A DNA stretch of 64,000 bases, taken from contig CM000155.2 of the NCBI GenBank assembly GCA_000004695.1, forward strand, positions 544,001-608,000, read 5' to 3'. Shown here in pieces: positions 1 to 42,210 of the stretch. The stretch comes from Dictyostelium discoideum. Taxonomy: Eukaryota. The translations under genes were made by a program, and so were the position numbers. The notes under the pieces were generated by a model that was given only the letters and a program-made list of their open reading frames with translations, ran no database searches and had not been told where the DNA came from. The number at the start of each line of letters is the position of its first letter. Position 1 is the stretch's first letter.

Positions 1-131
1 TTATTTAATAATTGACTCCATAATCCATTGGGTGTTAAATCACCTTTTAAATTTGGAAATCTAAAACCTATTCCGATTATTGCAACTTTATTACAATTTT
101 CATTACTTTGATATTTATTTTTATAATCCAT
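1..131 (-). CDS. Partial CDS (N-terminal roughly 43 codons) of a second type I polyketide synthase paralog. The ATG is at complement(129..131) and the gene continues leftward out of the window.
   Basis: The minus-strand translation is MDYKNKYQSNENCNKVAIIGIGFRFPNLKGDLTPNGLWSQLL. This is near-identical, including a 60-nt identical DNA stretch, to the N-terminal KS exon of the complete PKS at 9466-9580. Confidence 0.8.
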   Translation of the reverse strand, partial: MDYKNKYQSNENCNKVAIIGIGFRFPNLKGDLTPNGLWSQLLN

Positions 132-1414
132 TGTTTGTTAATTGTTTTACTTTGAATTTTTTTAAAAATTAAATTTTTTTGGTTTTACTTTACTTAAAAA
201 ACTATTATTATTTAAAGAAAAAAAAAAATTATTTATAGTTAAGATTTTTAATTATGAAAAAAAAATAAAAAATTAGAAAAAAATAAAAAAATAAAAACAA
301 ACTATTTTTTTAAACTTACCAACTAAATCTCAAATCTCCCAATTATACAAGTCCTATATATTTTTTGGAGATTACCATTTGAAAAATAAGGATGGCTTAT
401 TTCGGAGTTTCGGGAAATAATAATAAAGTCAAAAAAAACCATAGGCTTTTTTATGACACCAAAAAAAAAACTAGTAAATAAATAAAAAAAAGGAGAATTT
501 TTGAAAAAAAAAAAACGTGTTTAATTGTTTTTTTAATAGGAAAACCAAAAGGATAGGAATGACCAATCATTTCTTAAAAAAAAATAATAATTATAATATA
601 ATATAAATTTTTTTATCGCTTTCTTCCCACATTATAATGCCTTTGATTTTCAAACCCTAATTTATTTTTAGTAATTGATTTTTATTACTTTAAAAATATA
701 ATAATAAAATAACCAATTAAAAAATTAGGGATGCAAATCAAAGGCATTATGTTATTGGTTATTTTATTATTATATTTTTAAAGTAATAAAAATCAATTAA
801 TAATTATTTTTATTATTCATTTTATTTTTTATTTTATTTTATTTTTTTATTTTATTTTATTTTTTATTTTATTTTATTTTTTTATTTTTTTATTTTTTTA
901 TTTTTTATTTTATTTTTTTTTTTATTTTTCCTCAAATAATGTTCGATTTTATATTAATATACCCACACCCCCCTATAAAAAAAATAAAAAATAAAAAATC
1001 AGGAAATTGGAAAAAAGGGTTGAACCACTAAAAAAAAAAAAGGGATTTTTTTAAAGAAAAAGAGATTAAGATGTATTATAAAAAAATATATTAGGCAATA
1101 AATAAAAAAAAAATATTATTTCTTTTTTTAAAAAACCATTCAAACTTTACCTTTTTATTTCAAAACAAAAGATTTAATTTTTTTATTTTAAATATTAATT
1201 TATTATAAAAAATATAACACTGAAAAATACACAAAATGATATTAAATATATAAAAAATAAATGTAACCATTCAGTTTTTTTTTTTTTTTTTTTTTTTAAC
1301 CAAAAATTCATTTGTGATTTTTTTTTTATTTTGAAGAACAACGAGAAGGAAATATTTTAATTAAAAATAGATATTAAAAAAAAGACCAAAAAAAAAATGA
1401 TTTGATTGAATTGA

Positions 1415-1453
<39 letters not shown>

Positions 1454-1873
1454 TAGTAATATCACTGGAAAAAAAAACCTAGTAAAATGTTAAAATATAA
1501 TTAAATTAAATTTTTATAAAAGTTTGTAATGCTATTATATAAATTAATAAAAATTATTACAAAATAAGATTAATAATAACAAAATCAATAAATTTTTTAT
1601 TATTTAACGACAAATTAATATTCATTAATAATATTAGATTTTATCAATTTTTAATTTATTAAAATATATTTTTATTATGGCCAGATTCTTTTTTATTATT
1701 TTATGATAATTTAATAATAAAGTGTGATTAATTATTAATTTGAAATTGATATTAGTTTGTTAAAATTTTTATTAAATCATAATATCGTTTCTTAAAATAT
1801 GAGTTTTTGCAGTAGTTTAATTTCTCACAAAATAGTAAAATTTCTTAGATTTTATTCTCTGGTGATGTTTTTT

Positions 1874-4800
1874 TTATTTTTTATTTTTATCCATAGAATT
1901 TTTAACAAGTTGAATAAATGAATTGATCGTACTATTTTGGATTTTTTGAATTGTTAATTCATTTGGAATTGAAAATTCTTTATCTACCCAATTCTTTAAT
2001 TGAATGATAACTAAAGAATCAATCCCATAATCAACTAAAATGATATCTTTATTAAGTTTTAAAATATCAGTTGATAATATCTCTGAAATTTTAAATGTTA
2101 TTAATTGGTCAACAGTTAATTCAACATTGTCATCTTTTAATAATGATTTTGATTTTTCATTTTCTTCATTTATATTAATTTGGTAATCAAATTTAGATAT
2201 TAATGATTTTTGAGGTAATCCATTCAACGAGGTGAAATTGAAATTTGATAAAATTAAATTTGATGATTGTGCTTGATTTTGTAATTGTAAATCCAATGTA
2301 CCTAAAATTAAATTTGCTGATATTGGTATAAACCCTTCACCACTTAATAATGCTGCAACACTTTCATTTCTTGAAACGAAACCTGTGGATTCAATTAAAC
2401 CATAATTTGTACAAATTGTTGGTAAACCAATTGAAATTCTATATTTTGATAATGCATCTAAAACATTATTAGATGAGATGTAACCGCATTGATTTGCTGT
2501 ACTTGTTTTACTTGAAACACTTGATGACATTATAAAATTTTTTAATTTCCAATTTCTTTTAATTGATTGATTATGTAAATTAATTGCACCCATTGATTTT
2601 GCACTATGAGATTGTGTTAAATGATGTAAATCAACTTCATCAGAATTACAAGTGGCTTGAGTGTATGCGAAATGGAATATTGAATCGATATTATTAATAT
2701 CTGGATTTTCAATTAATAATTTATTAATTGATTCATCAATTAATCCAGAATCACTAATATCGACACTCTTGAAATGAAATTTAATATTATTGAAAAAATT
2801 ACCAAGCTTATTAATTAATTTTACCTTGTTTATTAAATACTCCATTTCCCATTTAATTGATGATTTTGATAAAATGATTATATTGCCAATTGAATTATTT
2901 TCAGAATTTCTTAATATCCATTTTAAAATTTCTAAAACTATACCTGATTGACCTGTTAATAATATGTTTCTACCTAATAATGATGGTTCAAGTTTATAAT
3001 TTTGTTTAAAAATTGATTGATCAAATTTATTAATTGATTTTTGTTTTTCAATTAATTCATTTATAATTGAATCTTGATTTTCATGATTTATAATGATTTT
3101 ACCCATATGAACTCTTTCATTTATAAATTCAATTGATTCTTTAACTTTTTCAATTGAATAATGTGTAATTGGAATTAATTGTAAATCATTCGATGAAACT
3201 GCATTTGAAATTATTGATAAAGTTGATTTTATAATTTTCTTATCAACATATTGTAATTCAATATTATGATAACCATAATTATATTTAAATTTCTTATTAT
3301 CAGTAAATTCATTTGAATTTAAATGAGTAATTGATAAATCAACAATTCTACCACTCATATTTAAACATTTGAAATTTGAATCCATATAATCACTTGATGA
3401 TAATGTATTCAATATAAAGTCAACACCACTTTTACCAAATGGATTTAATTTACTAATTTTTGATTTAATTTGTTTAACGAAATTTTTATTTCTTGTTGAA
3501 TATATACCTGAAATCATATCACCATAATTTTCTCTTAAATACTCTTCTTTTTCATTTGAACCAACAGTTACAAAAATTAAACCAGAATGGCCTTTCCATT
3601 TTAATATTTCTAAAGTTGATAAACCAACACCACCAGTTGCAGAATGAATTAATATTGTTTCATTATTTTTTAATGCACCAATATTATAAAGTGAATGATA
3701 TGAAGTTAAATAAACAACTGGAATTGATGATGCTTCTGAATGAGATATGTTTGATGGTTTATGACTTATTACATCGATATCTGTAATAATATGAGATGAT
3801 GTTGTACTTTTACCAATACCGTAAACGTGATCACCAACTTTAAATTCTTTACTACCTGTACTAATTCTTGTAATAATACCAGAAAACTCTATACCGAAAA
3901 TTGGTTCAACACTCTCTACTAAACCTGCATATATTAAATAATCTTTATAATTTAAACCTGTTGACATTACTTTAATTTCAACTTCATTTTCTTTTAATAT
4001 TGATGTTGGTTTTACTTTTACTTTATATTCTAAATTTGGTGTTAATGATATCATAAAGTTATCAACTTGTTCTAATGATTCAAATGAACTTGAGTTCTTG
4101 AAAATTGATTTTAATTTTGTTTCATTTTTAATTCTTTCATAATAAACCTTATGATTATTAATTATAAACTCTCTTTGTATATTAATTGATGAATTAATTA
4201 ATGGTTCAATTGTTTTAAATAAATTTTGATTTTCAATAATTGATGGGGTATCGAAATTTAATATAAACAACTCTAAAGGACATTCATGATAATATCTTGC
4301 AGCACCAATTAATGAAGAACTTAAATAATTGGTTGTTGTCGAATCATTTGTAATTAAAACATGCTTACATTTACAATTCAATTCCATTAATTTTTGATTG
4401 ATTTGAGTATATTCATGTGTAATGTTTACGAAATTATCAACAGATAATTCATCAATTGATTTAATGAAGTAAATAATTGATTCATTTGAAATATATTTTC
4501 CAATTTTATTTAACTCTTCAATTGTTGATATAAATTGTAAATTACCATTATCAATTGATTTTATAAAATGATTTGATAAATTTGAAGCATATTTATTACC
4601 AAAAACAATAATACTATCATAATTTGTGGTTTCAGATTTTGAAAATGAAAGATTTGAAATTGATGGTTTTTGAGCTTGAATTACAAAACATGTTAATTCT
4701 GGTGTCATTCTAATATCATCATTAAAATTTACTGATTTTAATAACTTATACCAAGTTTTTTGTTTCATACAACATCTATCTTTTCTAATTTCAGTATCTT

Positions 4801-7800
4801 GGAAAGACCACCATTGATCAAAAACACCAAAAATACCATCACCTATAATTGATTTATAAATTGGTTCGATGAATAATAAATGACCATTTGGTACTAATAA
4901 TTGATAAATTTGTTCAACACCATATTTAACATCTTTAATGACATGTAATACATTAAACATAATTATATAATCAAAGTATTGTGGTTTTAATCCTTGTTTT
5001 TCACCAATCAATGGTTGTTCTAAATTTAATGCTTTATAAATAATATTAAATCTATCATTAAACTTTTCAAATTTAGCTTTTGCTTCGGTAATAAAAGATG
5101 GTGATATATCTGACCATGTATATTCAATATCAATTTGATAATTTGGATATTGAATTAATAATGAATTGATTTTTTCAAGTACTAATAACGATAATGATCC
5201 AACACCACCTCCAAATTCTAATATTCTAAATACTAATTTTTCATTTAATATTGGTTTGATGGATTCTTGAATGATTTCACCCACCAATTCATTTTGAGCA
5301 GAAAAACCACTTGAATAGAATTTATCTAATAACCCACCTTCGAATAATGATTGTGGTGAATCTTCATCATTATCATTTTCTAATGGGAATAATAACTTTG
5401 AAATTATCTTTGTTGACTTTGAGAATATCTTAAAATTATGAGGACTTAAAACATTTTCAAAATCATAATCTTCATTATGGTACCATTGTTTTATTGATTC
5501 AAATGCAAATGTAAATAATCTTGAAAGCCATTTATTATCATTATCTTCTTTAATTTTATAATATTTTAATAATAATTGTTCAATTTCACTTGATTGAATT
5601 TCATCAATTGTAATTTCTGGACATCTTTTATTGATATTTGAAAATAATAATTTTGGAATAAATGATTCATAGATATTAATTTGATCAACATATTCATTAG
5701 GTATTTTTCTTTTGAAAATATGATCAAATGATGATAGTGATGGAATTAATGAATCTTTTGATTGTAAATTACATGAATAAATTTCATTTGTTGGATATTC
5801 CATTGCCAATGGATCTTTAATTTTTGTAGTTGATTTAAATGATGCATTTTCCATTTCAAATAAAACAGTACCATTTTCTAACATTACAATAATTGATGCA
5901 GAATATGAATCACCAATTCTTGGTTTTAATTTTGAATAAACATATATTTTAGAATGTTGACTTGTTGTCTTTGGAACCTTTGATGAATAGTATGTTAATT
6001 CTTCAAGTTTTTCAAATACCAATTGACAATTCTCATCAATTAAACCAATTGAACCATGTAAACAACAATCAATAATTGATGAATCAAAAAAGGTTGATCT
6101 ATTTTCATTAACACCTTGAATAATTGATATTTCAGATAATGAACAATTGTAACCTAAATAACATTTATCAACTCTTTGGAAATCACCAGAATAATTTAAA
6201 CCACATTTTGTTTTAATATGAGAATATAATTCTTGTTTTGATAATTTTGTAAGGTTACATTGATTTGAAATTAAATCATTTATATTATACATAAATAAGG
6301 ATTGTTCGTCATCTTCGTTTAAATTAGGACCTCTTGAAAATAATTGGAAATTTGCAGTTGATGTTTGTACCCAATCGCTTGATGATTTTTCATCTTTAAA
6401 ATGGAATAATGCTTTATATTCTTTTTTACCAGTTGAGTGAATGTTGGTTTGTAAACATTGACTGATTCCATCCATAAAAATTAATGGAGTTTTAAATTCA
6501 ATAAAACTAATCAATATATCTGGTAACTCTTTATTTGGGTTTGTATCAGTTTTTGATTCACCAAATATTTTTAAAATGTTGTCAATGTAACCACAACCTG
6601 GGAAATAATACTTTCCTTTAATTTGATGTCCTTTTAACCATTGGAATGGTTTCTTTTGAATATTAATATGAGTTTGATATGATTTAATTGGTGTATGATT
6701 TGAATTTGAAATACCAAGATGATTGATTGATGGACCATTTGAAAGATGATATTGGTGAAGATTATCAAGTTTCCAATATTCCTGATCTTCCCATTGATAT
6801 AATGGCAAATTTACCCTAGTTTGATTATTGGTATTATTATGATCAGATAATTGAATATTAAATCCGATACCATTATAACCTAAACAATATAATTCTGAAA
6901 TTAATTTTTGAATTTCAAATAAATCATTTGATTTCTTTTTTGAAAGTGGTGAAAAGATTGAAACTGATTGTTTTTTATCCTCTGGTACCATTTGTTTTAA
7001 ATAAAATGATAAAGTTGGATGTGGTGCAATTTCAATAAATATAACTTCATTACTATTATTATTAACTGAATAATTTAATTCAATATGTTTATAAATATTT
7101 GAAATTGTATTTGTAAATCTTACAGGATTAATGATATTATCATAAACATATTTGGTATCAAATGGATTCATTTCATCATATAAATTTGTTGTAACTGTTG
7201 AGAAAATTGGAATAGTTGGTTGTTTTGATTTGAATGAAATTTTTAAAATTTCATCTTTTACTGATAATTGACTTGAGGTATGGAATGAAGTTGGAGAACC
7301 TAATATTGCACAAAATACACCATCTTTTTTTAATTCTTTAATAATTTCATTCAAGATTAATTCTTTACCAGCAATAACAATTGATGATGGTGAATTGTAA
7401 CATGCAATTTCTAATTCTGGATATCTTGAAGAGTATTTTGAATTATATTCATTCTCGCCAATTGAAATTGATAACATTCTACCGAGACCATTTGTTTTTG
7501 ATTGTACCATTGATCTGTGATAAATTAAATAACAAAAAGTATCTAAATCAATCATACCAGAACAATATGATGATGAAATTTCACCTAAACTATGACCGAC
7601 GATAATTGATGGTTTAATACCCCAATGACAGTATAATTCAAATAATGAAATTTGTACCATACAAGTTGATGGTTGTGCAATTATTGAATATTGAATACCT
7701 TTTAAATCATTTTCATTAAATGATCTTAATTTTTCTAAAATTGAAAATCCATAATATTCATTTAATTTTGAATCAATTTTGTCCATTGATTTTTTGAAAA

Positions 7801-9580
7801 TTGGTTCATTATCATATAAATTCTTTGCCATTGTTGAATATTGAGCTCCTTGACCACAGAATACAAATACCATTGTTACATTCTTTTTATTTGATGATAC
7901 TAACATATTTGATGTTAATTTATCATTTGATGTATTGATAGTATTTGATTTTAAATTAAACTCATCCCAATTACTTGCAATTACAACTGAACGTTGAATT
8001 AATTTTTTAGATTTTGATTTTATTTGATTTTCTGCAAATTCTTTAAATTCAACATTATTATCAATTCTTGATTTATATAAATCTAATGATTTAATTGAAT
8101 TTGTTGAAAATGGGATTAAATATTGTTTTGGTGATTTTGATTTATTATTAATATTATTTCTAATTTGATTTCCTTTGAAACTTGATACAATTAAACAACA
8201 ATTTGAACCAGTGACACCGAAATTATTAATTGCAATTGAAACTCGTTTATTTATATAATTTAAAGTTGAAAAATCAATTGGGTCTGTTACAACCTTTAAA
8301 TTCCATTGATCAAATTTAATAAGTGGATTTGGTTTATTAAAATTTAAATTTGGAACAAAACATTGATTTTTTAAAATTAAACAACATTTAATTAATGATG
8401 ATATACCGGATGCAGATTCAGTGTGACCGATATTTGGTTTAAATGAACCAATTAATAATGGATTATCAGATGACCGATTTTCACTGGTTTTCAAAGCTAT
8501 TGAAACACTTTCCAATTCAATTGGATCACCAGTTGGTGTACCAGTGCCATGAGCTTCAAAATAAACGATATCATTTTCATTGACCTGTCCATTTGTTGAC
8601 TCCAGTGCCAAACGAATACATTCAACTTGTGATGATTTTGAAGGTGAATAAAAATTTGATTTATCTGAAAATCCATTACCATCGACATTTGATGCTGAAC
8701 CATCAATTACACAATAAATATTGTTATCATCTTTGATTGCATCATTTAAATTCTTCAAAATTGCAATACCTGCTGCATCAGATCTAACATAACCATCTGC
8801 ACCAGCATCAAACGATTTACACTTCCCATCTTTACTTAAAATATTTAAACGTGAATATGATTTTGATATATTTGGATCTATTAAAAAAAAAAAAAAAATA
8901 TTAATATTTTTAACTAATTTTTAATATTAAAATTATATATTATATATTTATATACCTAATAAAATATTAATACCACCAACAACAGAAATATTACTTGAAC
9001 CATCAATAATTGATTTATAACCTCTTCTGATTGCATTTGATGATGATGAGCATGCAGTATCAATTGTCATTGACTCACCATGTAAATCAAAACAATAAGA
9101 TACACGATTTGATATTGAATGTGTTGATGAAGAGAATATTTCTTGTTGAACTTTATTATCGTTTTTATTTAAATTTTGATAATCAGCACCACTACAACCA
9201 ATGAAAACTGAAGTATTGGAACCACGAATTTCAATTGGATCAATTCCAGAATCTTCCAATGCTTCCCAAGTACACTTTAATAATAATCTTTGTTGTGGGC
9301 ACATGTGAATACCTTCAGATGGATTAATTCCAAAAAATAATGGATCAAATGATTTCAATTCTTCAAATGGTATAAATCCAGCATAATTTGTTGAAATATC
9401 ACCTGATTTAAAAAAACTTTCATTCCATCTATCATTTTTAACAATTCCATCATACCTATTCAATAATTTACTCCATAGTTCATTTGGTGTTATATCACCT
9501 TTTAAATTTGGAAATCTAAAACCTATTCCGATAATTGCAACTTTATTACAATTTTCATCCACTAGATTTTTAGAATCCAT
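1874..9580 (-). CDS. Type I iterative highly reducing polyketide synthase. Structure is complement(join(1874..8877,8956..9580)), about 2542 aa, with a 78-nt phase-1 intron at 8878..8955 (GTATAT...AATAG).
   Basis: The ORF track gives a 2294-aa ORF plus a 210-aa upstream ORF. These join by a canonical GT...AG intron that restores the KS motif (...KCKSFDAGADGYVRSD...). Visible motifs are the AT GHSLGE, the DH HxxxGxxxxP (GHQIKGKYYFPG), the C-methyltransferase LEFGGGVGSLS, the ER HSATGGVGLST, the KR LLTGQSGIVLE and the ACP GIDSL. There is no C-terminal chalcone-synthase or TE domain. Confidence 0.9.
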
Positions 9581-12338
9581 TTTTCAATTATTTAAAATTT
9601 AAAAAAAAAAATTGATAAAAATTAGATAATTTATCCAAATTTTAAAAATAGATAAAAATAGGTAATTTTTTTTTTTTTTTTTAAATTTTAAATAATTAAT
9701 TAAAATTTTTAATTTTTAATTTTTTGGACATTTTTATTATTTTATTAATTAAATTAAAAGAAAAAAGGTTACATTACACTTTTTCTTGTGGTTAAAATTA
9801 TTAAGATCGAAATTAAAAAAAATTATTTGTTTTTTTTTTTTTTAAACTGTTAAAAAAAATAATTTAAATGTAGGTTTGGAAGGTTAGCCCATTTTTATTA
9901 CTTGCAACTAAAATTAAAATAAATATATTCAAAATAATAAAAAATAAATTCAAAATAAAAAAGTAAAAAAACAATTTGTTTTTTTTTTTTTTTTTTATTT
10001 TTTTTTTTTTTTTTGAGATCCAAACAAGATTTATTAAAAATTAAAAAAAAAAAAAAAAAAAAAAAATTATTAATAATTACCCCATCCAAAATAATAAAAT
10101 TTCAGCATATTAAATTATACCATTATAATTACATAAGTTTTTTTTTTTTTTTTTTTTTTAAATATATAAAAAATAGCCAGGCGATTAATTTTCTTTTTTT
10201 AATATTATTCGTAAATTTTTAAGTTATAATTTGAAAAAGTTATAATTTTAATAACAATAATATAAATGCAAATTTTATACATATATGGTTATTTTTTTTT
10301 TAATTTTAACGTGTGTACATTTATGTGTGGGTGTTTTTTTTATCTTCAAAGAATATAATAAAATTTACATAAAAAAAATAATTTTAAAATAAAACAAAAA
10401 TTGTAATGGTGAAGTTGATTTAGTTTATGATACTACTGGTATTTTGTTTAAATTATTTATTAAATTATTAAAATGGAATATTTTTTTTTGTTTGTGGTAA
10501 TTATTTTTATTGTTGGTTGTGGGTTACAATTTCCATTTTTTTTTTTTTATTTTTATTTTTTTTTTATTTTTATTTTTTTTTTTTCTGATTTAAATTCCAT
10601 TAATTTATAAAAATGAATTCAATACCAACACTGTTCTTATAATAGGTTTTTCTATTTTTTTTGGTATTTTTTTTTCTTCACTAACCACAATAACATTATT
10701 ATAATTTTTTAATAGAGGTAGCTTGATTTAATATTAGTACACACTACCACACACAATTTAATTCACTGACTTAATTATTTTAAATCTTTTACCAAATTTA
10801 TATAATATCTATAGTTTATTTAAAAGGTGTACCATTATTGGAAAAACAATTGTTTTTTTAATTATAATTATTATTATTATTATTATTATTATTTTTTTTT
10901 TTTTTTTTTTTTCATTTTATATTAACACCTCAAATAACAATAACAACAACACACATGTTCTAAATCTCTGAGTTTGGAATACAAATGCACATTCATATTA
11001 TTCCAAACATACACATAAATGTAACACCTCACAAGATAATTTAATTTGGTATTCAGAAAAAAAATTCACCTTCTATGTATAGTTTGGGGGTGCAATTATT
11101 GTAATATTATTAATAGAGTGAGTGGGAGAAAGGGTGTGTGAGTGTGTGTGAACGGGGTGAAAAAAACAATATTTTAGTTTTTCTAATTTTTTTTTTTTAT
11201 TTATTTCCATTTTTATATATGTTTTGTTTTATTTTTTTTTATTTTCTTTTTTTCATTTTTACTAATTACGGTTAATGTGCACAATATATTTGATAAATCA
11301 AAATAAAAATAAATAGGATACCAAATGTATGTTATTAGTACTATTTATCCACAATGATTTTTTTTATTTTTTTTTTGTTTTTTTTTTTTTTGCTAATTTT
11401 AAAATTAAAAAGAAAAACAAAAAACCAACAATAAAACAAAAATACCCTTTTTTTTGATCAAAACTACATCTAATATGTAAATTTTTTTAATATTATAAAT
11501 ATTAATATTATTATTTTTTTTTTAAAATAAAAAAATAAAATAAAAAAAAAAAAAAAAAAAAAAAAAGAAAAAAGCAACTTATTTAAATAACAAATTAATT
11601 TCTTATTTTCAATAACACACAATTGTCTTTTGAAAATTATAATAATTATATAATTATTAATAAAAAAATTAAATGGAAATTACATATATTTTATCTAAAT
11701 GTATGTTTTCTTTAAAATATTATTTGTGGATTAAAAAATAAAAAATAAAAAATAGTGATTGTATTTTTTTATATAAATTTAAAATAATTATTTTATATTC
11801 ATAAAAAAAAAAAAAAAAAAAAAAAAAATGGTATCAAATTATAATTATTTGAATTTTAAACTAATCAATTAAAAATAAAATATAAAAAATAAAATATAAA
11901 AAATAAAATTTTATTATTATTAGACTTTGGTTCAAGTAGATCAAATATCTATCAATCAAATAGCCAACAAAGTTTAACAATTCAAAATTCAAATGTTGCC
12001 TCTAAAAAATTAAATGTTTATGAATTTATACCTTATTATTAAAAAAAATAAAAAATAATCAAAAAAAAGAAATAAAAAAAATAAAAAAATAAAAAATAAT
12101 AATAATAATAATTAATAATAATAATAATCCATAAAAAAAAAAAAAAAAAAAAAAAAGAATAAAATTAGTGCCGATTCTAATAAACAAACTAAAATATATA
12201 TATTATATATTTAAAGTAATAAAATAAAAATAAAAAAAAAAAAAAAAACAAACAAACTTTTTATTATTTTATATTTTTTTATTTTTTTATTTTTTTTATT
12301 TTTTTTATTTTTTTTATTTTTTTATTTATTTTATTATT

Positions 12339-13876
12339 TTATTCTTCACTATTTGAAGATTTAAAAATATTAAAACCATCAATTGAAGTTGAAATAGCAA
12401 CATGAGGAATTTGTGGATGCCAATGAACTTCTTTAATATCATGTTGACCTTGGTGAATAAAGAATAATTGTGGTGGATATTGGAAATCATCATCTGGATT
12501 AGCATTTGCATTTGTAAATTCTTCAGTATCCTCTTCCAAAGAGAAATCCCAAATTGTGACTTGATCATCACTTGAAGAGACGATAACTTGTGACTCTTCG
12601 TATGGGTTCCATTCGATGGAGGTGATAGGACCAGTGTGGTATTTAAAGTCAGAGACTGGTGAATTATCTTTGAAAGCACGTAAATCCCAAACTCTAAAAG
12701 AACCATCATCACAACCACTAACTAAAAGATACTCAACATTTCTACTCCAAGAGATAACATTAACATCGGCAGTGTGAGCCTTTACTGTGATTGCTGGTTT
12801 TGGTTTTCTAATATCCCAAATTCTAACAGTCTGATCGATAGAACAACTTGCAAATACCTTCTCTTCAGATGGTGACCATTGAATATCCTCAACTGACTCT
12901 GTGTGACCTTTAAATGCTTGTGTATCAGTCTTCCATGTTGACTCACTTGCATTGGTAACGAAAATACTATTATTACAATCACCTGTTGCTAAACGACCTG
13001 CAATCTTTGGTGACCAGTCCAATGCATACCCCTCAATCGAATGATTACTAATAGTATGTAATGGTGCTGTTTGTTTTGGTGCTACTGTCTCATTATCCAA
13101 TGCTTTCAAATGATTTGCAATATTCCAAATATAAACACTTCTATTATCTGACCATGTTGCAACAATATTTGATTGTTGATCCATTGACTATTATATTATT
13201 AAATAATATATATATATATATATATATATTAATAAACAATAATAAATTATAAATAATAAATAATAATATGACTTACTCTAATTCTATTTACAGCACCATT
13301 ATGGTTAATAAATGCAAGTTGTAATTCTGGGTCAACATCTTTATCTTCATCATCTTCATCATCAGACTCTTCATCGTCGTCAGAATCTTCGTCATCGTCA
13401 GAATCTTCATCGTCATGTTTTGTTTTATGTAATTGTTTTGCTTTCATAATGATAACTTTATTGTTTTTAGCCTCATCAGCTTGTGTACCTGCTACTAAAT
13501 ACATTGTGTGTGGGTATTTATTACGTTGAGCACCTAATTCATCTTTAATTGGGTGGAATGAAAGACATGGCCATTCAACAGACATTGAATGCATCATATC
13601 GTATGCTGTTGAATCGTAATCTAAGACCTCATCCTCTTCCAATGGGTCAACACCTGCTCTCCATACTTTTTTTGGTCCTTTATCTTCACCATCGTTATCA
13701 CCACCTTCTTCACCACCTTCTTCAATCTCTTCAAATGATTGTTCATCATCTTCGAATGATTCAACCTCATCATCGTTCTCAAAATCATCTTCACCATTTA
13801 CATCTACATTAGTTCCACCAACTTCATCTGATTCTCCAAATTCAATATCTCCAAAACTTCTTTTTTTACTTGACAT
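12339..13876 (-). CDS. grwd1: Glutamate-rich WD-repeat protein GRWD1/Rrb1 homolog. Structure is complement(join(12339..13187,13277..13876)), about 482 aa, with an 89-nt intron (GTAAGT...AATAG).
   Basis: Two minus-strand ORFs (209 aa acidic N-terminus plus 281 aa WD40) join in frame across GTAAGT...AG. The N-terminus is an acidic D/E tract followed by a ...WRAGVDPLEEDEVLDYDSTAYDMMHSMSVEWPCLSFHPIKDELGAQRNKYPHTMYLVAGTQA block that aligns to the GRWD1 family, then WD repeats. Confidence 0.8.
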
Positions 13877-14929: not shown

Positions 14930-16367
14930 TTCTTTAAAATTAATTACTAATATATATTTTTTTTTTTTTTTTTTTTTTTAATATAAATTTTAAAAGGAAA
15001 AAGAATATTATGAAAGATTAGGTGTTAAACCAGATTGTACAGAAGATGAATTAAAGAAAGCATATAGAAAGATGGCTGTTAAATACCATCCAGATAAAAA
15101 TCAAGGACCAGGTAAAGATGCAGCCGAAGCAAAATTTAAAGATATTAGTGAAGCATATGAAGTTTTAAGTGATCCAGAGAAGAGAAAGATGTACGATAGT
15201 TATGGTTCTGAAGGTATGAAGGAGAGTGGTTTCCATGCATCATCAGCTGAAGACCTCTTCTCACATTTCTTTGGTGCAGGAGGTGGCGGTGGTGGATTTA
15301 GTTTCGGAGGTGGTGGTGGTGATGATTTTGGTGGATTTAGTTTTGGTAATATGGGAGGTATGGGCGGCATGGGTGGCATGGGTGGTGGTCACAAGAAGAG
15401 AAGAAAGGGTGAAGATATTGAACATGAAATGAATAGAAGTTTGGAAGAATTATATAATGGAAAATTAGTTAAGATTTCAATTAGTAGAGATGAAGTATGT
15501 AAAACCTGTAAAGGTAGTGGTAGTAATAAACCTGGTGTAACCACAACTTGTCCAACATGTAATGGTAGTAGATACGTTTTCCAAAAGAAACAAGTGGGTC
15601 CAGGTATGATACAACAAGTTCAAACAGCATGTCACACATGTCATGGTACTGGTGAAAAGATAAAAGAAGAGGATAAATGTAAAGAATGCAAAGGTAAAAG
15701 AGTTATACAAGGTAAGAAGATCGTACAATTCCAAGTCGAGAAAGGTACTAGAGATGGCGAAAGAATCATGTTACAAGGTCAAGGTTCCGAGTATCCAGGT
15801 GTACCACCAGGTGATGTAATCATTACAATTCGTGAGAAACCAAATGTAAATTTCAAGAGAAATGGTGATAATTTAATCTACACCAAACGTTTAAAATTAT
15901 TAGACTCAATCGCTGGTAGTCAATTCATTATAAACACATTGGATCAACGTAAACTTTGGGTCAATCATGAGAAAGGTGATATAATTAAGCAAGGTGATAT
16001 GCGTTACATAGAGAATGAAGGTATGCCAATTAAAGGTACCTCTAGAAAAGGTAAATTAATCATTGCTTTTGATATTGAATATCCATCGAATCTTACAAAT
16101 GATGATATTGAAAAACTCTCTAAAATCTTACCAAAAGCTGCCACCCCTTCTGTTTCAAAATCTGATTGTAAATCGGTTGGTCTCTCAAAGGTAAACTTTA
16201 ATACCAACGAACAAAGTTCTCATGGTGGTGCTGGTGGTGCTTATCAACAACATGGTGGTGCTTATGGTCATCAAAAACAACAACAACAAGGTTTTAATCC
16301 TGCTGATTTTGGTGCTCAATTTGGTGGTGGTGGTCCACAACAAGCACAACAGTGTCAACAACAATAA
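14877..16367 (+). CDS. Type A (class I) DnaJ/Hsp40 chaperone. Structure is join(14877..14885,14997..16367), about 459 aa, with a 3-codon first exon (ATG GTA AAA) and a 111-nt intron.
   Basis: The spliced N-terminus is [38 protein letters not shown], a J domain with HPD. It is followed by a G/F-rich region ([14 protein letters not shown]), four CxxCxGxG zinc-finger repeats and a C-terminal CaaX box (CQQQ) predicting farnesylation. Confidence 0.85.
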
Positions 16368-17047: not shown

Positions 17048-20580
<3,533 letters not shown>

Positions 20581-20715
20581 TAATAATAATAATAATAATA
20601 AAAATTTTAAAATAAATTATTACCCCCTTCCCAATTATTTAATAATTAGTTTAATTGATAAAAAAAAGATTTTTTTTTTTTTTTTTTTTTTTGAGTTTTA
20701 TTTAAACTTTAATTA

Positions 20716-21758
20716 TTAAAATAACAAAGAAATTATTAAAATTAATAATAATGAGAATAAAGAATAACTAATTTTTGAGGAGTCATTACAGTATTTTTCA
20801 AATGAATATTTGGTACTTGGACAAGTGTCATCATTGGTACCCAAACTTGTTTGGTAGTATTTACATACTAGTGATCTACAATTTTTAGAAGAACAAGATG
20901 AAAGGGAGAATGAATTACCACCCAAACTGCAATTATATTCATTTAAACAATCATATAATGGTAATAAAACATCTACACGAGTTTTTGGAGAAAACCATTC
21001 ATTGCATTTACTATCACATCCACATTGTTGAAATTGATCGCACACATCGTCATTATTTGTACAATTTCCATTTTGAATTGGTTCAACATATTTTTCACAA
21101 ATATTCTTATTACACTTTAATTATTATTATAAAATTAATTATTTTTGAAAATTTAAATTAGATTTATGTATTTATATTACAATTTAAAATACTTACATAT
21201 AAATCTTGATTAATGTTACAATTTTCATCTGAAACACAAGCACTGCCAAGAACATTTTGGAAAAGATTTTGACAAGTTCCAACATCTTTTTCATTTGAAT
21301 AGGCTTTTTGACAAGATAATGGATGTACACATGGTTCTTCTTTACTATTGAGTGAACAGTTTTTACCTCTTTGAATTCTTTGAGTACAAACTTTATCTTG
21401 ACAATATTGATCATATAAACAATCTTCTTCATATTTACATTCATTAGTTGGATTGGTACAAATATTTTTGGTACATGTAGAGAATTTACTGTAACAATCT
21501 GATTCTTTTTCACATTCATCACCAATTTGAGAGAACTTTGCATTAATACATTTTCCATTTACACAAACTAAACCAATTTCACAAATTCCAAAATCAGTAT
21601 CTGAATTTACAAAACATTCTTCATCCAATTGAGCTGATGGTCTACAAACATAGTTTTCTTTTTTCGTTTCATTAGTATATGGACCACAAACAAAACCATC
21701 ACTCACACAACTTCCTGTGTAAAGGAAATCACTATCAGACTTTTTATAGGTACACTAT

Positions 21759-21797
<39 letters not shown>

Positions 21798-21964
21798 TTA
21801 TGTTTTTAAAAAAATAAATGATTAATCAATTAGTAAATTTTATTCAACTTGAATTAAATTGAAATACAAACTTTTTCTTCATCTTGGAAACATTTCATAC
21901 AACTATCTCCTTTGGTCAATACGATTAGAAATATTAAAGAAATAAATGAAAATAATAATTTCAT
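20716..21964 (-). CDS. Secreted cysteine-rich protein with a hydrophobic C-terminal tail, possibly GPI-anchored. Structure is complement(join(20716..21114,21197..21754,21872..21964)), about 349 aa.
   Basis: Exon 1 encodes the signal peptide MKLLFSFISLIFLIVLTKGDSC. Exons 2 and 3 are dense in Cys (CxxxC spacing, EGF/ecm-like). The C-terminus is ...KISYSLFSLLLILIISLLF. Splice sites are GTTTGT/AATAG and GTAAGT/TTAAAG, and the frames were checked by hand. Confidence 0.55.
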
Positions 21965-22461
21965 TTTTTAATTTTAATTTTTTTTTTTTTGGAAAAAAAA
22001 ATAATAAAATGATTAAATGGTAAAAAAAAAAAAAAAAAAAAAAGAAATAAAAATAAAAAAAAAAAAGAAATCAAAATAAAAAAAATAAAAATAAAAATAA
22101 AATAAAAAGATATTTTCAAAATGATTTTCAAATAAAATAACAAGATTTTTTTTTTTTTTTTTAAAACAAATCAGTAATATTTTTTTTTTTTTTTTTTTTT
22201 TTCAAACTGCCGCCCCAAAAATTGTAAATTTGAACAAATAAATTATGATTTTTTTTTTTAATTTAAATGGATTTATTATTTGTTAAGTTTGAATTGAAGG
22301 CATTAAATTATAACATTTTCCATTACAATCACAACCTTGATCAATTGAACAAACACTTGGATTTACATTTGAAACCTCTGGTTCTACATTTTTTACAAAT
22401 TTTATTTTTATAATAACACTTTTAAAATAAAATAAAATGAAATTAGTAAAATGATTTTTTG

Positions 22462-22504
<43 letters not shown>

Positions 22505-22753
22505 ATTGGTTACTTATAAACCATCACTAGATTTATAAGAACCACCCATACCATTTATTGTTAAAGGTTGACATGTTCCAATTTCTTCGGGGATGGGGAA
22601 ATAATGCTAAAGCATAAAAAATGGTATTGGTTTTAATTTTTAATTTTTTATTATTATTTTTGTCAGAATTTATCTCTATTATTAAAAAAAATTAAATTTT
22701 GTAATTAATTATTTAAAAAGTTTTCTTTTATTGTTATAATTTTTTTATGACCT

Positions 22754-23553
22754 TCAGAATCCAATAATCAAAATAACAGAGAATAATGCCAAAGCATAAA
22801 AAATGTACTGAATGGAATGTTTTGATTGGGCACTAGAGGTAGAATCTGTTGATGAAGTAGTGGTTTTTTCCGGACCGGAACATGGAGTAATATCACTATT
22901 GTATCCTGTTGTGTTAAAAACAAAATTAATTTTATATTGTGGATTATCACTAAAAACTCCATTGAAAAATGATTGTTTGTCAGAGTACAATGAACTAAAT
23001 GTTTTTCCATTTTCTGTTTTAATACTCGAACATGATTCATATAAACCTTGAGCAAAATCAGGATGAAGAATGAAATCAATTTTAACCACTTGAAGTGTTT
23101 GTGTTATTGTCTCAGTTGGTACCATAAATGATTGTTGAAATGGTGAACAAATTGATCCACACCATAAGCTCCAAACATTGGCTAAACATCCTGGACATTG
23201 ACCAAAAAGTGTTTCATTACTTTGAATAAATGTTTTAAGTCCATTAGTTTGATATGTATAACAACATGCTTTTTGTGAATATTCTGGATGTGAAGCTTGA
23301 CATGTTCCTGAAGTAATAGAAACACTGTTATACTAAAAAAAAAAAAAAAAAAAAAACAATTTGTTAATTATGTTTAATTACTTATGGTATTTTGAAAAAG
23401 TAATTCATACTGGAGGAAATTGTGAATTTTTAACAAAAGTTGCATTATTACCAAAAATTGAACATCCTTCAGTTGTATTATAAGGGAATGGTCCTTGTGA
23501 TTTTACTAAAAGAGTAAAACAAAAAAAATAAATAAAAAAAATTAAAATTATAT
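22754..23553 (-). CDS. Secreted cysteine-rich protein with a Ser/Thr-rich stalk and a GPI-signal-like C-terminus. Structure is complement(join(22754..23332,23401..23553)), about 243 aa.
   Basis: Exon 1 is MNLNIILIFFIYFFCFTLLVKSQGPFPY... (signal peptide). The donor is GTATGA and the acceptor TTTTTTAG, with the frame verified. The mature part contains CQASHPEYSQKACCYTY...GQCPGCLANVWSLWCGSICSPF, then TTTSSTDSTSSAQS and the hydrophobic tail FYALALFSVILIIGF. Confidence 0.6.
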
Positions 23554-24897
23554 TTAAATTCATTTTGGTAAATAAAATTTAATATTTTAGAAAAAAAAAA
23601 AAAACAAAAAAATTAAAAAACAGTTCCCAATGGTTTTTTTTTTTTTTTTTTTTAAAAGATTTTTATAATAAAAATAAATATCTAAAAACGACACAATATT
23701 GTGTTGCATGTCTTAAAAAAAAAAATTAAAAAAATAAAAAAATAAAAAATAAAATAAAATAAAATTTCCAATCACTTCGTCATTTTTACAAAATTGATTC
23801 CCAAAGATATTTTTTTTTTTTTTTGGTTAATTTTGATGCATAAAATATATTTTATACAACCATTTTTGACTGAAGAGAAGAGCAATATATATAATGAATT
23901 AAAAAACTAATTACTCTGCCAACTAGGTTGTTTATTTTAAATTAAATAAAAAAATTTATTAAAGAAAATTTTATTACTATTATTATTATTTATTTATTTA
24001 TTTATTTGATTTTTTAAATTTATATGATTTTGAGTATTTTTGGGTGATCTATTTATCTATACTAAATTCATATTAAAAATAATATAATTATGATCGAGTT
24101 ATCTCGAAAAAAGTTTTTTATTTTTTAATAAAAAGCACGATTGGTAATTTAAGTACAGTAGCATTACTTGATAAAGCAGGTTTAACAAATGAAGTTTTAT
24201 TTTAATATTTTTAGGTGTATCATTATCGATATTGGGATTTGCAATATTGAGTAAACCAGTTATAGTTAATGATAAAGGTCAAATAGTAGAGAAAGAGAAT
24301 CAAATTAAGTTTATTATTATTTAAAGATAGACCAACTCGATTACTAGTGGTACCATTACTTTATAGTTAGGGTAAGTGATTTTTTTTTTTTTTTTTCAAT
24401 TGACAACCACATTTTATAACAGTTATCATCTAAAAATAATTAATAAAATTACAAATACATATTAAAAAAAAAAATAAAAATAAAAATAAAAACAATGTAA
24501 AATATAATGTTTCAAATTCAGCTTGCAGTTGAATAGTCATCTACTTTAAGACAATCAACTAAAAGAATGGACTAAAACAATTCCATCAGCTATAATTAAA
24601 ACTTAATTTATATAATTTTAATAATATTAAAAATTAAAAAAAATATTTTAAAATTTGTAAATTATGTATTTTTTTTTTTTTTGTAAATTTTCTATTTTTT
24701 CCACTATTTAAAAGTCATTTGATTTGAATTTTTAAGTTTTTAATTTCACATATTCATTTTTTTTTTTTTTTATTTTAATTTTCAAAACAAATAATAATAA
24801 TTTTTTTTGAGCCCTTATTTTTTTATTTACTCAAAATAGACTCGAATACCCTTTTGTCAACTAATTAATTTCGAAACTAATTCGGTTTTAAGTTTTA

Positions 24898-24937
<40 letters not shown>

Positions 24938-25330
24938 AATATTATTATTTGTTACAAACAAACACAAAAAAAAAAAAATTAGTATTATTATTTGTAACAA
25001 ACACAATAAAAAAAAATAATAATTATGTTATTTATTAAATTATTTTTTTGTTAATTTTCATTCTAATTTTTAGAGATAATCTAAAAAAAAAAACATAATG
25101 TGTTGGGTGGAAAAAAAATATATATATATAAATAGATGAAGATATAAAATCTTTTGATAAAATATTTGTAATTAACCCAAAAAAGGTAAAAATAATATTG
25201 TGTAACTAAATAAATATTATTATGAAAAAAATTATAAGTTTTTAACTTTTTTAAAAAATTAGTTTTTTTTTTTTTTTTTTTTTAGAAATAATAATTATTA
25301 TTATCATTATTATTAATTTGTAAAGTCATA

Positions 25331-26269
25331 ATGTTAAATAAAATAATATTAATATTTTTTTTAATAAATAATATATTTTCAATAGTTGTTTCCTCAACAA
25401 AATTAAATCCATGGGTTTTTGAGGAAAGAATTAAATTATATGATATATTAATTAATTCAACAAAAGTTGAAATTTTTGGAGATGATAATTTAAATAATTG
25501 TTTTCAAGGTTTTAAAATCCAACTTGAATGGCAAAAAACAACAGGTAGATCAATGATAATTGATAATTCGAATATTAGTGTTAATAGTTGGTGGGGATCA
25601 ATGAACTATTATGAATCAATCATACCATTTATATCTGCTATGAATTTAGGTATTATACAACCACCAATTGAACTGGTTAATATTGGAGATGACAGATTTT
25701 GTACAGACTATTCTGAATGTGATAAAGAGTTAATGGAGCCATGGGATTTATATTTCCAATTTTTAATTAAAATTAAAGATGAAAAGTATAGCTATTCAAT
25801 TCAACAACAAATATTAAAATATAATTGGGATGGACATATGAAAAGTTTAAGTATTGGTTTAAAATTATTTAATGATAAATTGAATTATCTTTCAAAAAAT
25901 GAAATTAAATTCTCAACTGGATTTGTTCATTTTGTTGATATTATATCATTAATTAATTTCAATACAAATTATAGCCAAATTTTACCAATTTTCGATTCAC
26001 TTCCACCAAGAATGTTAACAAATTCTGATCATCCACCATTTTTTAAAGGTTTTACAAGAACTCAAAATTTTTATACTGTATCAGTTTTATCAATTAATGA
26101 ATTACATGAAAATCAAATACTATGGAATTATTTTTTAAATCTTTTAAAAACAAAAACTGAAAATGAAAAATGTCGTGATTTTATAAATCAAGAAATTATT
26201 AATTTTACAAAATACCCTGAATCAACATTAGTTAAATTATTATTAAAACTTTTATTAAATAATTGTTAA
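25331..26269 (+). CDS. Hypothetical secreted protein of 312 aa with an N-terminal signal peptide.
   Basis: This is a single ORF. The N-terminus MLNKIILIFFLINNIFSIVVSS is a strongly hydrophobic signal. I recognise no conserved domain, and the codon usage is typical of the flanking genes. Confidence 0.45.
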   Translation: MLNKIILIFFLINNIFSIVVSSTKLNPWVFEERIKLYDILINSTKVEIFGDDNLNNCFQGFKIQLEWQKTTGRSMIIDNSNISVNSWWGSMNYYESIIPFISAMNLGIIQPPIELVNIGDDRFCTDYSECDKELMEPWDLYFQFLIKIKDEKYSYSIQQQILKYNWDGHMKSLSIGLKLFNDKLNYLSKNEIKFSTGFVHFVDIISLINFNTNYSQILPIFDSLPPRMLTNSDHPPFFKGFTRTQNFYTVSVLSINELHENQILWNYFLNLLKTKTENEKCRDFINQEIINFTKYPESTLVKLLLKLLLNNC

Positions 26270-26693
26270 TTTAAATTAAATAAAAAAAAAAAAAAAAAAA
26301 AAAAAAAAAGAATCTGCCCTACCTTTTAAAATTTTTTAACAAAAGTAATGTTTGTGTATGGAATTGGCATAACTTCGAAACATAACTTTAAATTAAAAAT
26401 TTCAAAAAGCAGGGAAGGGTACATTGAGAGTCTCATTACTTTTTCACACTCTGATATCAAAAAAAAAAATAATAATAATATAAAAAGAAAAAAAAATATA
26501 GAAATTGAAGAATAATTATAAAATAAAACGAATATTTTTTGAAATAAAATTTTATTTGTTTTTTTTTTTTTTTTTTTAATTTTATATCTAAAGTTGAGTC
26601 GATAAATTATTAATTACCTTAAAATGGTGAATTACTGAGATAGCTTTCAAAAATTGAAAAATTTCATCTAGAGATATCTCAATCAAAATGGGC

Positions 26694-26745
<52 letters not shown>

Positions 26746-27006
26746 GTTATTATTAATTATTATTATTATTATTACTACTAACTAAATCTTCTTCCTCTTC
26801 TTCTTCTTCCTCTTCTTCATCATCCTCCGAGATATTTTTTTTGAAAAAAAAAAAAAATCACCAAAGCGCTGGTGGTAAAAAAAGATTTTTTTTTTTGCCA
26901 GTTAACTTTTAATTATTACCCAAAAAATTTCAACAAATTTTTTTTTATTTTTTTTTTTTTTTTTATAATTTACTTTTTTTAATTTTTGATCAACATTAAA
27001 CATAAA

Positions 27007-27492
27007 ATGGATAACAATTATAATAAATATTGTTCAGGACAGTTAAAAATAATTTCTGATTTTGATAAAATTCAAGAAATATTTCAAATTGTTTTAAAAA
27101 ATCATGTCAATAACCAAGATACAAACGATAATATTAAAATTTTAGATATCGGTTGTTCACATGGTAAAAATTCAATAATTGTCTTAAAACCATTAATTGA
27201 ACAAATTAGAAATAAATGGAAGCCAAATGAAAAAGTAATTGAAATATTTCATTCAGATTTATCAGTAAATGATTTTTCAAAATTATTTAATGAAGTTTAT
27301 CATTTAAATTCATATTCTAATAAAATCAATAATATTTTTACATATGGTATTGGTAATGGATTTGAGAATCAATTAGTACCAGATAATTCAATTGATTTTA
27401 TATTTTCATTTACAACTTTACAATGGGTACCATTTATAGGTAAATATAAATCATTTGAAGGTTCATTATATAATATTTTTTTAAAAATTTAA
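27007..27492 (+). pseudogene. 5'-half copy of a SABATH/Methyltransf_7-like SAM-dependent methyltransferase, truncated after about 155 codons.
   Basis: MDNNYNKYCSGQLKIISDFDKIQEIF...ILDIGCSHGKNSI... matches the N-terminal half of the intact paralogs at 27564 and 31206. Homology ends at ...FEGSLY, followed by a stop and the promoter of the next copy. Confidence 0.6.
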
Positions 27493-27563
27493 TTTATTTA
27501 GTTTATATTTTTAAATTTATTTTTTATTTGTTTAGTTTTTTTTTTTTTTTTTATAAAAATAAA

Positions 27564-28610
27564 ATGGATAATAGTTATAGTAAATATTGTTCTGGACAAT
27601 TAAAAATAATTTCAGATTTTAATAAATTTCAAGAAATATTTAAAATTGTTTTAAAAAATCATGTTAATAATCAAGGTACCCAGGATAATAATAATATTAG
27701 ATTTTTGGATATTGGTTGTTCACATGGAAAAAATTCAATAATTGTATTAGAGCCATTAATTGAAAAAGTTAGAAATCAATGGAAGCCAAATGAAAAAGTA
27801 ATTGAAATATTTCATTCAGATTTACCAGTGAATGATTTTTCAAAATTATTTAATGAAATTTATCATTTAAATTCATATTCAAATAAAATCAATAATATTT
27901 TTACATATGGCATTGGTAATGCTTTTGAAAATCAATTAGTACCAGATAATTCAATTGATTTTATATTTTCATTTACAGCAATACATTGGATACCATTTTT
28001 AAGTGAATATAAATCATTTGAAGGTTCCTTATACATACCAATTACTTATCGTTTACCAGGTTTTGAAAATTATTATAAAGAAAGATTATTAAATGTATTA
28101 AAAAATCGTTATAATGAATTAAAAGTCGGTGGTATTTTTTCATTTAATCTTTTCATTCAAGAAGATCAAGGTAGTGAAAATGAAGAAAAAAGTAAATCAC
28201 TTTATTATTGTTTGAAAAACATTAAAGAAATTCTTAGAGAAATGAGTTATGAATCAATTTTATCAAGAGAAGAAGTTGAAAATATGATTGTTCCAGCCAC
28301 AATTTATTCTAGAGATGAATATCAATATGCAATTGATAAATCAACTAATAATACTGGTCTAAAATTAATTTATGAAAATAGAATAACATCTAATTGGGCT
28401 GATAGTTATCAAGATGATGAATCTTATATTGGTTCACTTGTTGGATTTATTAGTAATTTCATTAAAAATGCAATTAATGGTGATAGTGATAGAGTTGATT
28501 CAGTATTCAATGATTTCAAACAACGTCTACATTTAAAATATAAATTAAATCCAAAAGATTTCCAATTTCATCTTTGCAATTTATATTTATCATTTTTAAA
28601 AGAAAATTAA
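27564..28610 (+). CDS. SAM-dependent methyltransferase, SABATH/Methyltransf_7-like, intact copy of about 348 aa.
   Basis: The SAM-binding motif is ILDIGCSHGKNSI (compare LDLGCSSGPN in the SABATH family). A ...YKERLLNVLKNRYNELKVGGIFSFNLF segment follows. This is a full-length ORF, 85-90% identical to the copy at 31206. Confidence 0.7.
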   Translation: MDNSYSKYCSGQLKIISDFNKFQEIFKIVLKNHVNNQGTQDNNNIRFLDIGCSHGKNSIIVLEPLIEKVRNQWKPNEKVIEIFHSDLPVNDFSKLFNEIYHLNSYSNKINNIFTYGIGNAFENQLVPDNSIDFIFSFTAIHWIPFLSEYKSFEGSLYIPITYRLPGFENYYKERLLNVLKNRYNELKVGGIFSFNLFIQEDQGSENEEKSKSLYYCLKNIKEILREMSYESILSREEVENMIVPATIYSRDEYQYAIDKSTNNTGLKLIYENRITSNWADSYQDDESYIGSLVGFISNFIKNAINGDSDRVDSVFNDFKQRLHLKYKLNPKDFQFHLCNLYLSFLKEN

Positions 28611-42136: not shown

Positions 42137-42210
42137 GTTCGGATGGTGTAGTCGGTTATCACGAATCCTTAACACGGATTAGGTCGTGGGTTCGATTCCC
42201 GCTCTGAATA
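42137..42210 (+). tRNA. tRNA-Val (anticodon AAC).
   Basis: The cloverleaf was folded by hand. The acceptor is GTTCGGA/TCTGAAT (two G-U pairs) and the D-arm is GTGT/TCAC with an AGTCGGTTA loop. The anticodon stem AATCC/GGATT carries the loop TTAACAC. The variable loop is AGGTC and the T-arm is GTGGG-TTCGATT-CCCGC, with discriminator A. It is near-identical in layout to metazoan tRNA-Val-AAC. Confidence 0.9.

Follow-up and report, generated by a model that had tools for sequence, protein, structure and literature searches.

The window analysed here is a 64,000-nucleotide (nt) stretch of Dictyostelium discoideum DNA (assembly GCA_000004695.1, contig CM000155.2, positions 544,001 to 608,000 of the forward strand) with a G+C content of 22.6%. 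Its left edge holds the subject of this report, a tandem pair of polyketide synthase (PKS) genes: the window contains the complete pks41 gene of D. discoideum AX4 and the first 131 nt of pks40. Both genes lie on the minus strand, head to tail, with 1,742 nt between them and pks40 as the downstream neighbour. The pair is already annotated ('probable polyketide synthase 41/40'), and the window genes are these genes (Q54ED6 and Q54ED7, respectively), with no difference. A first-pass annotation of the window had recognized the tandem head-to-tail arrangement and had taken the leftmost bases for the start of a second PKS, and both statements are correct.

Organization of the pks41/pks40 locus

Exon 1 of pks41 (8956..9580, minus strand, 625 nt) encodes the N-terminal part of the ketosynthase (KS) domain and is followed by a 78-nt GT..AG intron (8878..8955), which is ~63% identical to the intron of pks40, with several indels. 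Exon 2 (1874..8877, with the stop codon at 1874-1876) encodes the C-terminal part of the KS, the acyltransferase (AT), the dehydratase (DH) region, the methyltransferase (MT), the enoylreductase (ER), the ketoreductase (KR), and the acyl carrier protein (ACP). According to an exact-sequence look-up, the spliced product (9580..1874, minus strand, 2542 residues) is residue-for-residue AX4 pks41 (DDB_G0291684, Q54ED6). Positions 1..131 (minus strand) comprise the first 43 codons and 2 further nt of pks40, which extends past the left window edge; the translation of 131..3, MDYKNKYQSNENCNKVAIIGIGFRFPNLKGDLTPNGLWSQLLN, is the exact N-terminus of AX4 pks40 (DDB_G0291614, Q54ED7; protein P0122). The spacer that separates the stop codon of pks41 from the beginning of pks40 (132..1873, minus strand) is AT-rich and shows no homology either to the sequence upstream of pks41 or to that downstream of pks40. 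It contains an inverted repeat (668-725 and 746-803) with 58-nt arms that are 93% complementary and 20 nt apart, adjoined by a long T-rich, (TTTTA)n-like tract (~783-958); this inverted repeat may be a coincidence of AT-rich low-complexity DNA.

In Pfam, the KS of pks41 is matched by PF00109 (residues 12-255, E=1e-65) and PF02801 (263-388), the AT by PF00698 (545-860), the methyltransferase by PF08242/PF13489 (1424-1594), the enoylreductase-type ADH domains by PF08240/PF00107/PF13602 (1838-2138), the KR by PF08659 (2182-2371), and the C-terminal ACP, on the same polypeptide as the AT, by PF23297 (ACP_SdgA_C, 2458-2542). The KS active-site motif TIDTACSSS (DTACSSS) is kept in both pks41 and pks40. 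PS-DH (PF14765) has no match in pks41 at E<=1e-5 and is found among the precomputed domains of a 92%-identical protein (P0001). With this domain content (KS/AT/DH-region/MT/ER/KR/ACP), both genes are predicted to encode type I iterative highly reducing PKSs. In the sources, the proteins are named 'probable polyketide synthase' or 'hypothetical protein', without an assigned product or function.

Within the window the pair is visible as a direct repeat of the two 5' ends (2-117 against 9457-9572, 89% identity), and the cross-assembly blast alignment of these ends shows 93% identity over 102 nt (E=1.4e-37). The first-pass annotation had described them as almost base-for-base identical, with a perfect run of 60 nt, and had regarded 9466-9580 as the KS exon and the first exon of the gene. 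Over nt 1-125 of pks41 (gene positions, counted from the start codon, are given here as nt) the identity is 88.0%, with a 6-nt (two-codon) indel, which is below the gene-wide 95.8%; there are two exact runs, of 25 and 39 nt, with one mismatch between them, the longer of which (39-77, equal to 9494-9532) is an exact 39-mer present twice in the 64-kb window and expected 0 times in 100 shuffles. The repeated segment is the beginning of the 625-nt exon 1, and not an exon in itself. On the pks41 side the matching stretch (9456..9580, minus strand) ends at ~9456 because the window begins inside pks40.

Mosaic identity of the two genes

The full pks40 sequence was taken from locus L002 (10001-17738) of the D. 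discoideum assembly GCA_054883475.1, which is probably AX2-214 of Holland et al. 2025 (PMC12745789). The locus is 99.93% identical to window positions 1-10135 (10,135 nt), and its pks40 protein is identical to that of AX4. Over ~7.7 kb, pks41 and pks40 show 95.5-95.8% identity (of 7,797 alignment columns, 323 hold substitutions and 73 hold gaps), with the similarity starting at about the ATG and ending ~8 nt past the stop codon. The flanks of the two genes have no collinear similarity: blastn matches of 55-63% are no better than those of a control pair, and global alignment of the upstream and downstream flanks gives z values of -1.7 and -0.13. The earlier remark that the surrounding DNA differs is borne out upstream of the two ATGs, where no similarity is found. 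The edges of the original duplication unit, sought in the flanks by sensitive blastn and global alignment, gave AT-rich background only.

Aligning the full paralog, as the first-pass annotation had proposed, reveals a mosaic of identity tracts and diverged tracts. In 300-nt windows the identity ranges from 81% to 100%, and about half of the alignment columns (3,939/7,797) lie within identical runs of at least 100 nt. The longest perfect runs measure 554, 437, 433, 273, and 234 nt. When the same number of differences is placed at random, the longest run has a mean of 125 nt and a 99.9th percentile of 232 nt (P<2e-4). The synonymous divergence (pS) per 100 codons varies between 0.00 and 0.20 and tracks the nonsynonymous divergence (pN); since the two rise and fall together, the identical tracts are not explained by constraint at the protein level. 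Over the whole gene the synonymous rate (dS) is 0.089, the nonsynonymous rate (dN) 0.030, and dN/dS 0.33.

Comparison across lineages

At 90% identity the protein cluster comprises nine proteins, those of AX4 and of five further assemblies. Besides L002, the loci compared were FIW (labelled D. discoideum) and FIY (labelled 'cf. discoideum'), with two copies each, FIR (labelled D. discoideum), with one copy, and FIZ (labelled 'cf. discoideum'), with one copy and a fragment. The tandem order pks41-pks40 is the same in L001, L002, and L003, and the spacer, although diverged, is conserved from strain to strain. At the level of the whole gene, AX4 pks41 is 95.8% identical to AX4 pks40 and 95.5% identical to its positional ortholog in FIW, and the two FIY copies resemble each other (96.2%) more than they resemble their AX4 orthologs (94.4-94.8%).

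For each quartet formed by the two copies from each of two lineages, the informative sites were sorted into those that group the sequences by orthology (O), by genome (C), or in the third pattern (X). The counts were O=140, C=95, and X=6 for AX4/FIW, O=76, C=190, and X=1 for AX4/FIY, and O=85, C=172, and X=6 for FIW/FIY. The X pattern is nearly absent, so the signal is not noise. Along the gene the O and C sites are strongly clustered (53, 34, and 42 runs against 114, 110, and 115 expected, with 0/5000 permutations as low), and they form 13-14 alternating blocks of at least 5 sites in each quartet. The segment identity matrices agree with this: exon 1 and the KR region fall into two orthology groups, and the AT and MT-ER regions group by genome, with 98.6% and 98.1% identity, respectively, within AX4, 98.2% and 98.6% within FIY, and 93-96% between lineages. 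In the homogenized blocks dS between paralogs is 0.053 (AX4), 0.110 (FIW), and 0.038 (FIY), against 0.13-0.17 between orthologs, whereas in the remaining islands the order is reversed (0.16-0.19 between paralogs, 0.11-0.15 between orthologs). The within-genome blocks, together with a paralog dS below the ortholog dS, indicate independent homogenization of the central and 3' parts in each lineage after the duplication.

At 61 sites all three upstream copies differ from all three downstream copies. Apart from a single one at nt 7501, these fixed sites lie in four clusters (nt 88-807, 2739-2826, 3430-3897, and 6418-7252). As they are common to all three two-copy lineages, the duplication predates the split of these lineages, and the recent tandem duplication proposed in the first-pass annotation is not supported.

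Read from the 5' end of pks41 (all positions on the minus strand), the first and largest unconverted island spans nt 1-807 (8774..9580); it covers the N-terminal part of the KS (KS-N) and the intron, shows the orthology pattern in every lineage, and contains 27/61 fixed sites. It is followed by a homogenized block at nt 828-2718 (6863..8753; KS C-terminal part, linker, and AT), with 61 consecutive within-genome sites in the AX4/FIY quartet and the 433-nt perfect tract (7328-7760) inside it. A small unconverted island directly after the AT domain (nt 2739-2830, 6751..6842) is marked by fixed sites and by the block pattern, and another one, in the DH region (nt 3426-3897, 5684..6155), by fixed and quartet sites. 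The second large homogenized block (nt 3992-6382, 3199..5589) comprises the MT and the ER; it has 79 consecutive within-genome sites in the AX4/FIY quartet and contains the perfect tracts of 554 nt (3222-3775), 437 nt (3879-4315), and 273 nt (5337-5603). The KR domain forms the last unconverted island (nt 6418-7252, 2329..3163), defined by fixed sites and identity matrices, and a homogenized 3' block before and into the ACP (nt 7309-7483, 2098..2272) overlaps the 234-nt perfect tract (2081-2314). The islands are mildly raised in dN/dS between paralogs (0.30-0.38, against 0.17-0.24 between orthologs), still in the range of purifying selection.

The 5' segment from which gene conversion had originally been proposed, SPECIFICALLY, sits inside the largest unconverted island. 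Over nt 1-494, informative sites of the orthology pattern outnumber those of the within-genome pattern by 28:1, 18:1, and 23:2 in the three quartets, and four of the 61 fixed sites (nt 88, 96, 101, and 112) fall within the 125 nt that are visible in the window. This segment is thus no evidence of conversion and not a recent conversion tract; its similarity is a remnant of the old duplication, held by purifying selection on the KS N-terminus.

A protein search among the annotated proteins of D. citrinum, D. firmibasis, and D. purpureum gave none with >53% identity to pks41, and the pair appears to be limited, among annotated proteins, to the discoideum clade. As a separate observation, AX4 differs from the tropical 'D. 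discoideum' isolates more than expected at this locus: dS between orthologs reaches ~0.11-0.13 for the PKS genes, the flanking hexapeptide-repeat gene shows 98.0-98.4% identity, and the intergenic DNA is only 79-86% alignable.

Copy-number variation

The single gene of FIR is of the pks41 type at 61/61 diagnostic sites. On the 3' side of this gene, the sequence matches the spacer over ~200 nt and continues directly with the DNA beside the hexapeptide-repeat gene (L005:17720-18200), which corresponds to a ~12 kb deletion that removed pks40 and its downstream neighbours. The possibility that the FIR gene is a pks41/pks40 chimera from unequal crossing-over was considered and rejected, on the same 61/61 sites and on the position of the junction in the spacer. 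In FIZ, the full copy is mainly of the pks40 type and has on its upstream side a remnant of pks41, with nt 9-267 joined directly to nt 6832-7130 (L004:7135-7700); the KR part of this remnant is 97% identical to the full copy of FIZ itself. Because FIR lost pks40 and FIZ keeps only a remnant of pks41, each of the two genes is dispensable in some wild lineage.

The region downstream of pks40 is structurally unstable. It carries a family of genes of ~450-600 residues without Pfam matches, variable in copy number (L001-L005, about 18000-27700), whose copies are 80-88% identical to one another and from strain to strain. L001 also has an incomplete second hexapeptide-repeat gene (19099-19379).

Probable interlocus gene conversion and alternative explanations

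These observations are best accounted for by an old tandem duplication with continued interlocus gene conversion between pks41 and pks40 that has spared four islands, a reading to which we assign a probability of about 0.88. A PKS gene would have been duplicated in tandem before the sampled discoideum-clade lineages split, and patches of a few hundred bases to ~2 kb would since have been copied repeatedly between the two coding regions. Such interlocus (non-allelic) conversion would keep the AT, MT, ER, and ACP nearly identical within each genome, while KS-N with the intron, the stretch after the AT, part of the DH region, and the KR would remain distinct between the paralogs in every lineage. 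Neither the flanks nor the intron would take part in the exchange, and the flanks would by now have diverged beyond alignment. The route is probably homologous-recombination repair, with the copy 9.4 kb away, on the same or the sister chromatid of this haploid organism, serving as the template. The ongoing conversion suggested in the first-pass annotation is therefore retained, on other evidence than its own: the contrast between perfect tracts of up to 554 nt and diverged tracts of 81-93% identity, and the switching of blocks between orthology and genome grouping. In AX4, the perfect tracts several hundred nt long point to exchange too recent for any substitution to have occurred since.

Several points weigh against this explanation. 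Sequence by itself cannot separate conversion from repeated double crossovers, and that the molecular mechanism was conversion rather than multiple crossovers is what we infer from the pattern. When the perfect tracts of AX4 are polarized with the FIW and FIY copies, they show mixed upstream-type and downstream-type states. The third-position G+C content (GC3) is 10.3% in the converted and 10.4% in the unconverted parts, with no footprint of GC-biased conversion between them. Both copies are available in three lineages only (AX4, FIW, and FIY), the AX4 pks40 DNA to the left of window position 1 is represented by L002, and the recombination tests are our own permutation tests.

Instead of short-patch conversion, rounds of unequal crossing-over could have contracted and re-expanded the array through chimeric genes. 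Unequal exchange can act on direct repeats such as these, 9.4 kb apart, and the copy number is indeed polymorphic, with two intact copies in three lineages, only pks41 in FIR, and pks40 with a pks41 remnant in FIZ. However, the 13-14 alternating blocks per quartet would need many crossovers, each of them restoring exactly two copies, the FIR deletion has its junction in the spacer and close to the hexapeptide-repeat gene, outside the PKS repeats, and the spacer has been preserved between strains despite its divergence. We therefore regard this route as improbable.

Still less credit can be given to a recent tandem duplication without later exchange, in which the uneven identity would reflect purifying selection on some domains. 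Such a history would fit the overall identity of 95.8% and the low values of both pN and pS in the conserved catalytic domains, but the synonymous sites are also identical across tracts of 273-554 nt, and the 61 paralog-specific differences common to three lineages place the duplication before their split. In the AT, MT, and ER, moreover, dS is lower between paralogs (0.04-0.11) than between orthologs (0.13-0.17), and a history without exchange cannot produce both patterns together. Equally slight is the chance that a single ancestral PKS was duplicated independently in each lineage. The predominance of within-genome sites between AX4 and FIY (190/267) and the differing copy number among strains would agree with it, but the quartets contain long blocks of positional orthology and almost no third-pattern sites, the 61 up-versus-down differences are fixed in all three lineages, the gene order and the position of the spacer are the same, and the single-copy states are explained by a ~12 kb deletion in FIR and a ~6.5 kb internal deletion in FIZ. 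Exon shuffling of a short module, with only the ~100 bp of the KS start common to otherwise unrelated genes, is the case that the first-pass annotation had named as refuting its own reading. It could be entertained as long as just 131 nt of pks40 were visible in the window, and is dismissed, as the full-length genes can be aligned with 95.8% identity all the way from ATG to stop and the KS-start segment is not an exon.

Under the preferred explanation, old duplication followed by conversion, the persistence of the islands could be due to selection for a functional difference, or it could be mechanical: the islands are 8-10% diverged, the homology ends at the ATG, and the indel-rich intron (nt 626-703) would block the heteroduplex. 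A stronger proposal holds that KS-N, the post-AT stretch, part of the DH region, and the KR are selectively kept distinct, setting different chemical programmes for pks40 and pks41 (chain length and reduction pattern), with the AT, MT, ER, and ACP freely homogenized. We consider it doubtful; if true, the pair would be a natural domain-swap experiment locating the programming determinants in an iterative PKS, and the first documented domain-selective concerted evolution in amoebozoan PKS genes.

Neighbouring genes and other features of the window

Two tandem ORFs for Methyltransf_7 SAM-dependent carboxyl methyltransferases (27528-28610 and 31206-32255, plus strand) lie ~18-22 kb upstream of pks41, and a further Methyltransf_7 gene (L002:24650-25695, minus strand) is found ~7 kb downstream of pks40. 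All three may encode tailoring enzymes on either side of the PKS pair, and the tandem ORFs are another paralog pair open to conversion testing.

On the strand opposite to pks41, and 42 kb away from it, there is a partial PKS ORF of 1009 residues (51950-54979, plus strand). Its product can be aligned with the DH region, the MT region, and the KR of pks41 at 37-50% identity and is without KS, AT, and ER; Pfam matches in it are limited to the KR, and the neighbouring ORFs (46775-48187 and 50807-51355) have no Pfam match. This ORF could be what is left of a truncated PKS, or else a stand-alone gene of the reductase type.

At 55998-60572 (minus strand) three ORFs of 402, 778, and 359 residues abut or overlap. 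The middle one contains an APE-type endonuclease and a reverse transcriptase domain, which identify the element as a non-LTR (long terminal repeat) retrotransposon. Its 5' end is ~190 nt downstream of tRNA-Leu(TAG) (60763-60843, minus strand), on the same strand, as expected of the tRNA-gene-targeted TRE elements of Dictyostelium, of which it may be one.

The other features of the window are a gene for an RBBP4/CAF1C-type WD40 histone-binding protein (12339-13876, minus strand; present as two ORFs that an intron presumably separates), a type I DnaJ gene (15072-16367, plus strand), a Leg1-family gene (25331-26269, plus strand), a DEAD-box SPB4-like helicase gene (33637-35628, minus strand), and tRNA-Val(AAC) (42137-42211, plus strand).

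Relation to known systems and implications

The pks41/pks40 pair is a well-resolved new example of a textbook process, interlocus gene conversion, in a known gene pair. The classic case of such conversion between young tandem duplicates is that of the primate gamma-globin genes HBG1 and HBG2. The PKS genes are like them in being direct tandem repeats a few kb apart with partial conversion and diverged flanks, and in that the paralogs within a lineage are closer than the orthologs between lineages. Unlike the globin genes, pks41 and pks40 are very long (7.7 kb), keep several persistent unconverted islands within one gene, and reside in a haploid organism.

Among D. discoideum PKS genes, Zucko and co-workers reportedly described, in 2007, clusters of 2-5 very similar members with promoters far more diverged than the coding sequences. 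The present pair is alike, with coding sequences that are 95.8% identical and flanks that cannot be aligned. Species-specific and lineage-specific PKS expansions were described by Sucgang et al. 2011 (PMC3188802). As far as searched, both accounts ascribe the pattern to duplication and species-specific expansion, and the block-wise evidence from strains given here is additional to them.

Gene conversion among the modules of bacterial modular PKSs was described by Jenke-Kodama et al. 2006 (PMC1592344), who ask whether the PKS genes of Dictyostelium follow the same strategy. The two systems are alike in that PKS coding sequence is homogenized by conversion within a cluster. In the bacterial system the exchange takes place among the modules of one assembly line, whereas here it is between two separate iterative genes; there the KS is homogenized, whereas in pks41 and pks40 KS-N and the KR are not. 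The literature searched contained no paper documenting gene conversion between Dictyostelium PKS genes, and a search on pks40/pks41 returned fungal, plant, and unrelated papers only.

One consequence concerns phylogeny. In trees of dictyostelid PKSs built from the AT, MT, or ER regions, duplications would seem younger and more restricted to single lineages than is the case; for pks41 and pks40, KS-N or the KR is a safer choice of marker. The persistent islands also hint at the domains that might make the products of these two otherwise near-identical synthases differ, and the wild isolates that lack one copy or the other are natural knock-outs of pks40 and pks41. The pair offers a concrete example of how the large PKS family of Dictyostelium evolves by sustained exchange between neighbours as well as by duplication.

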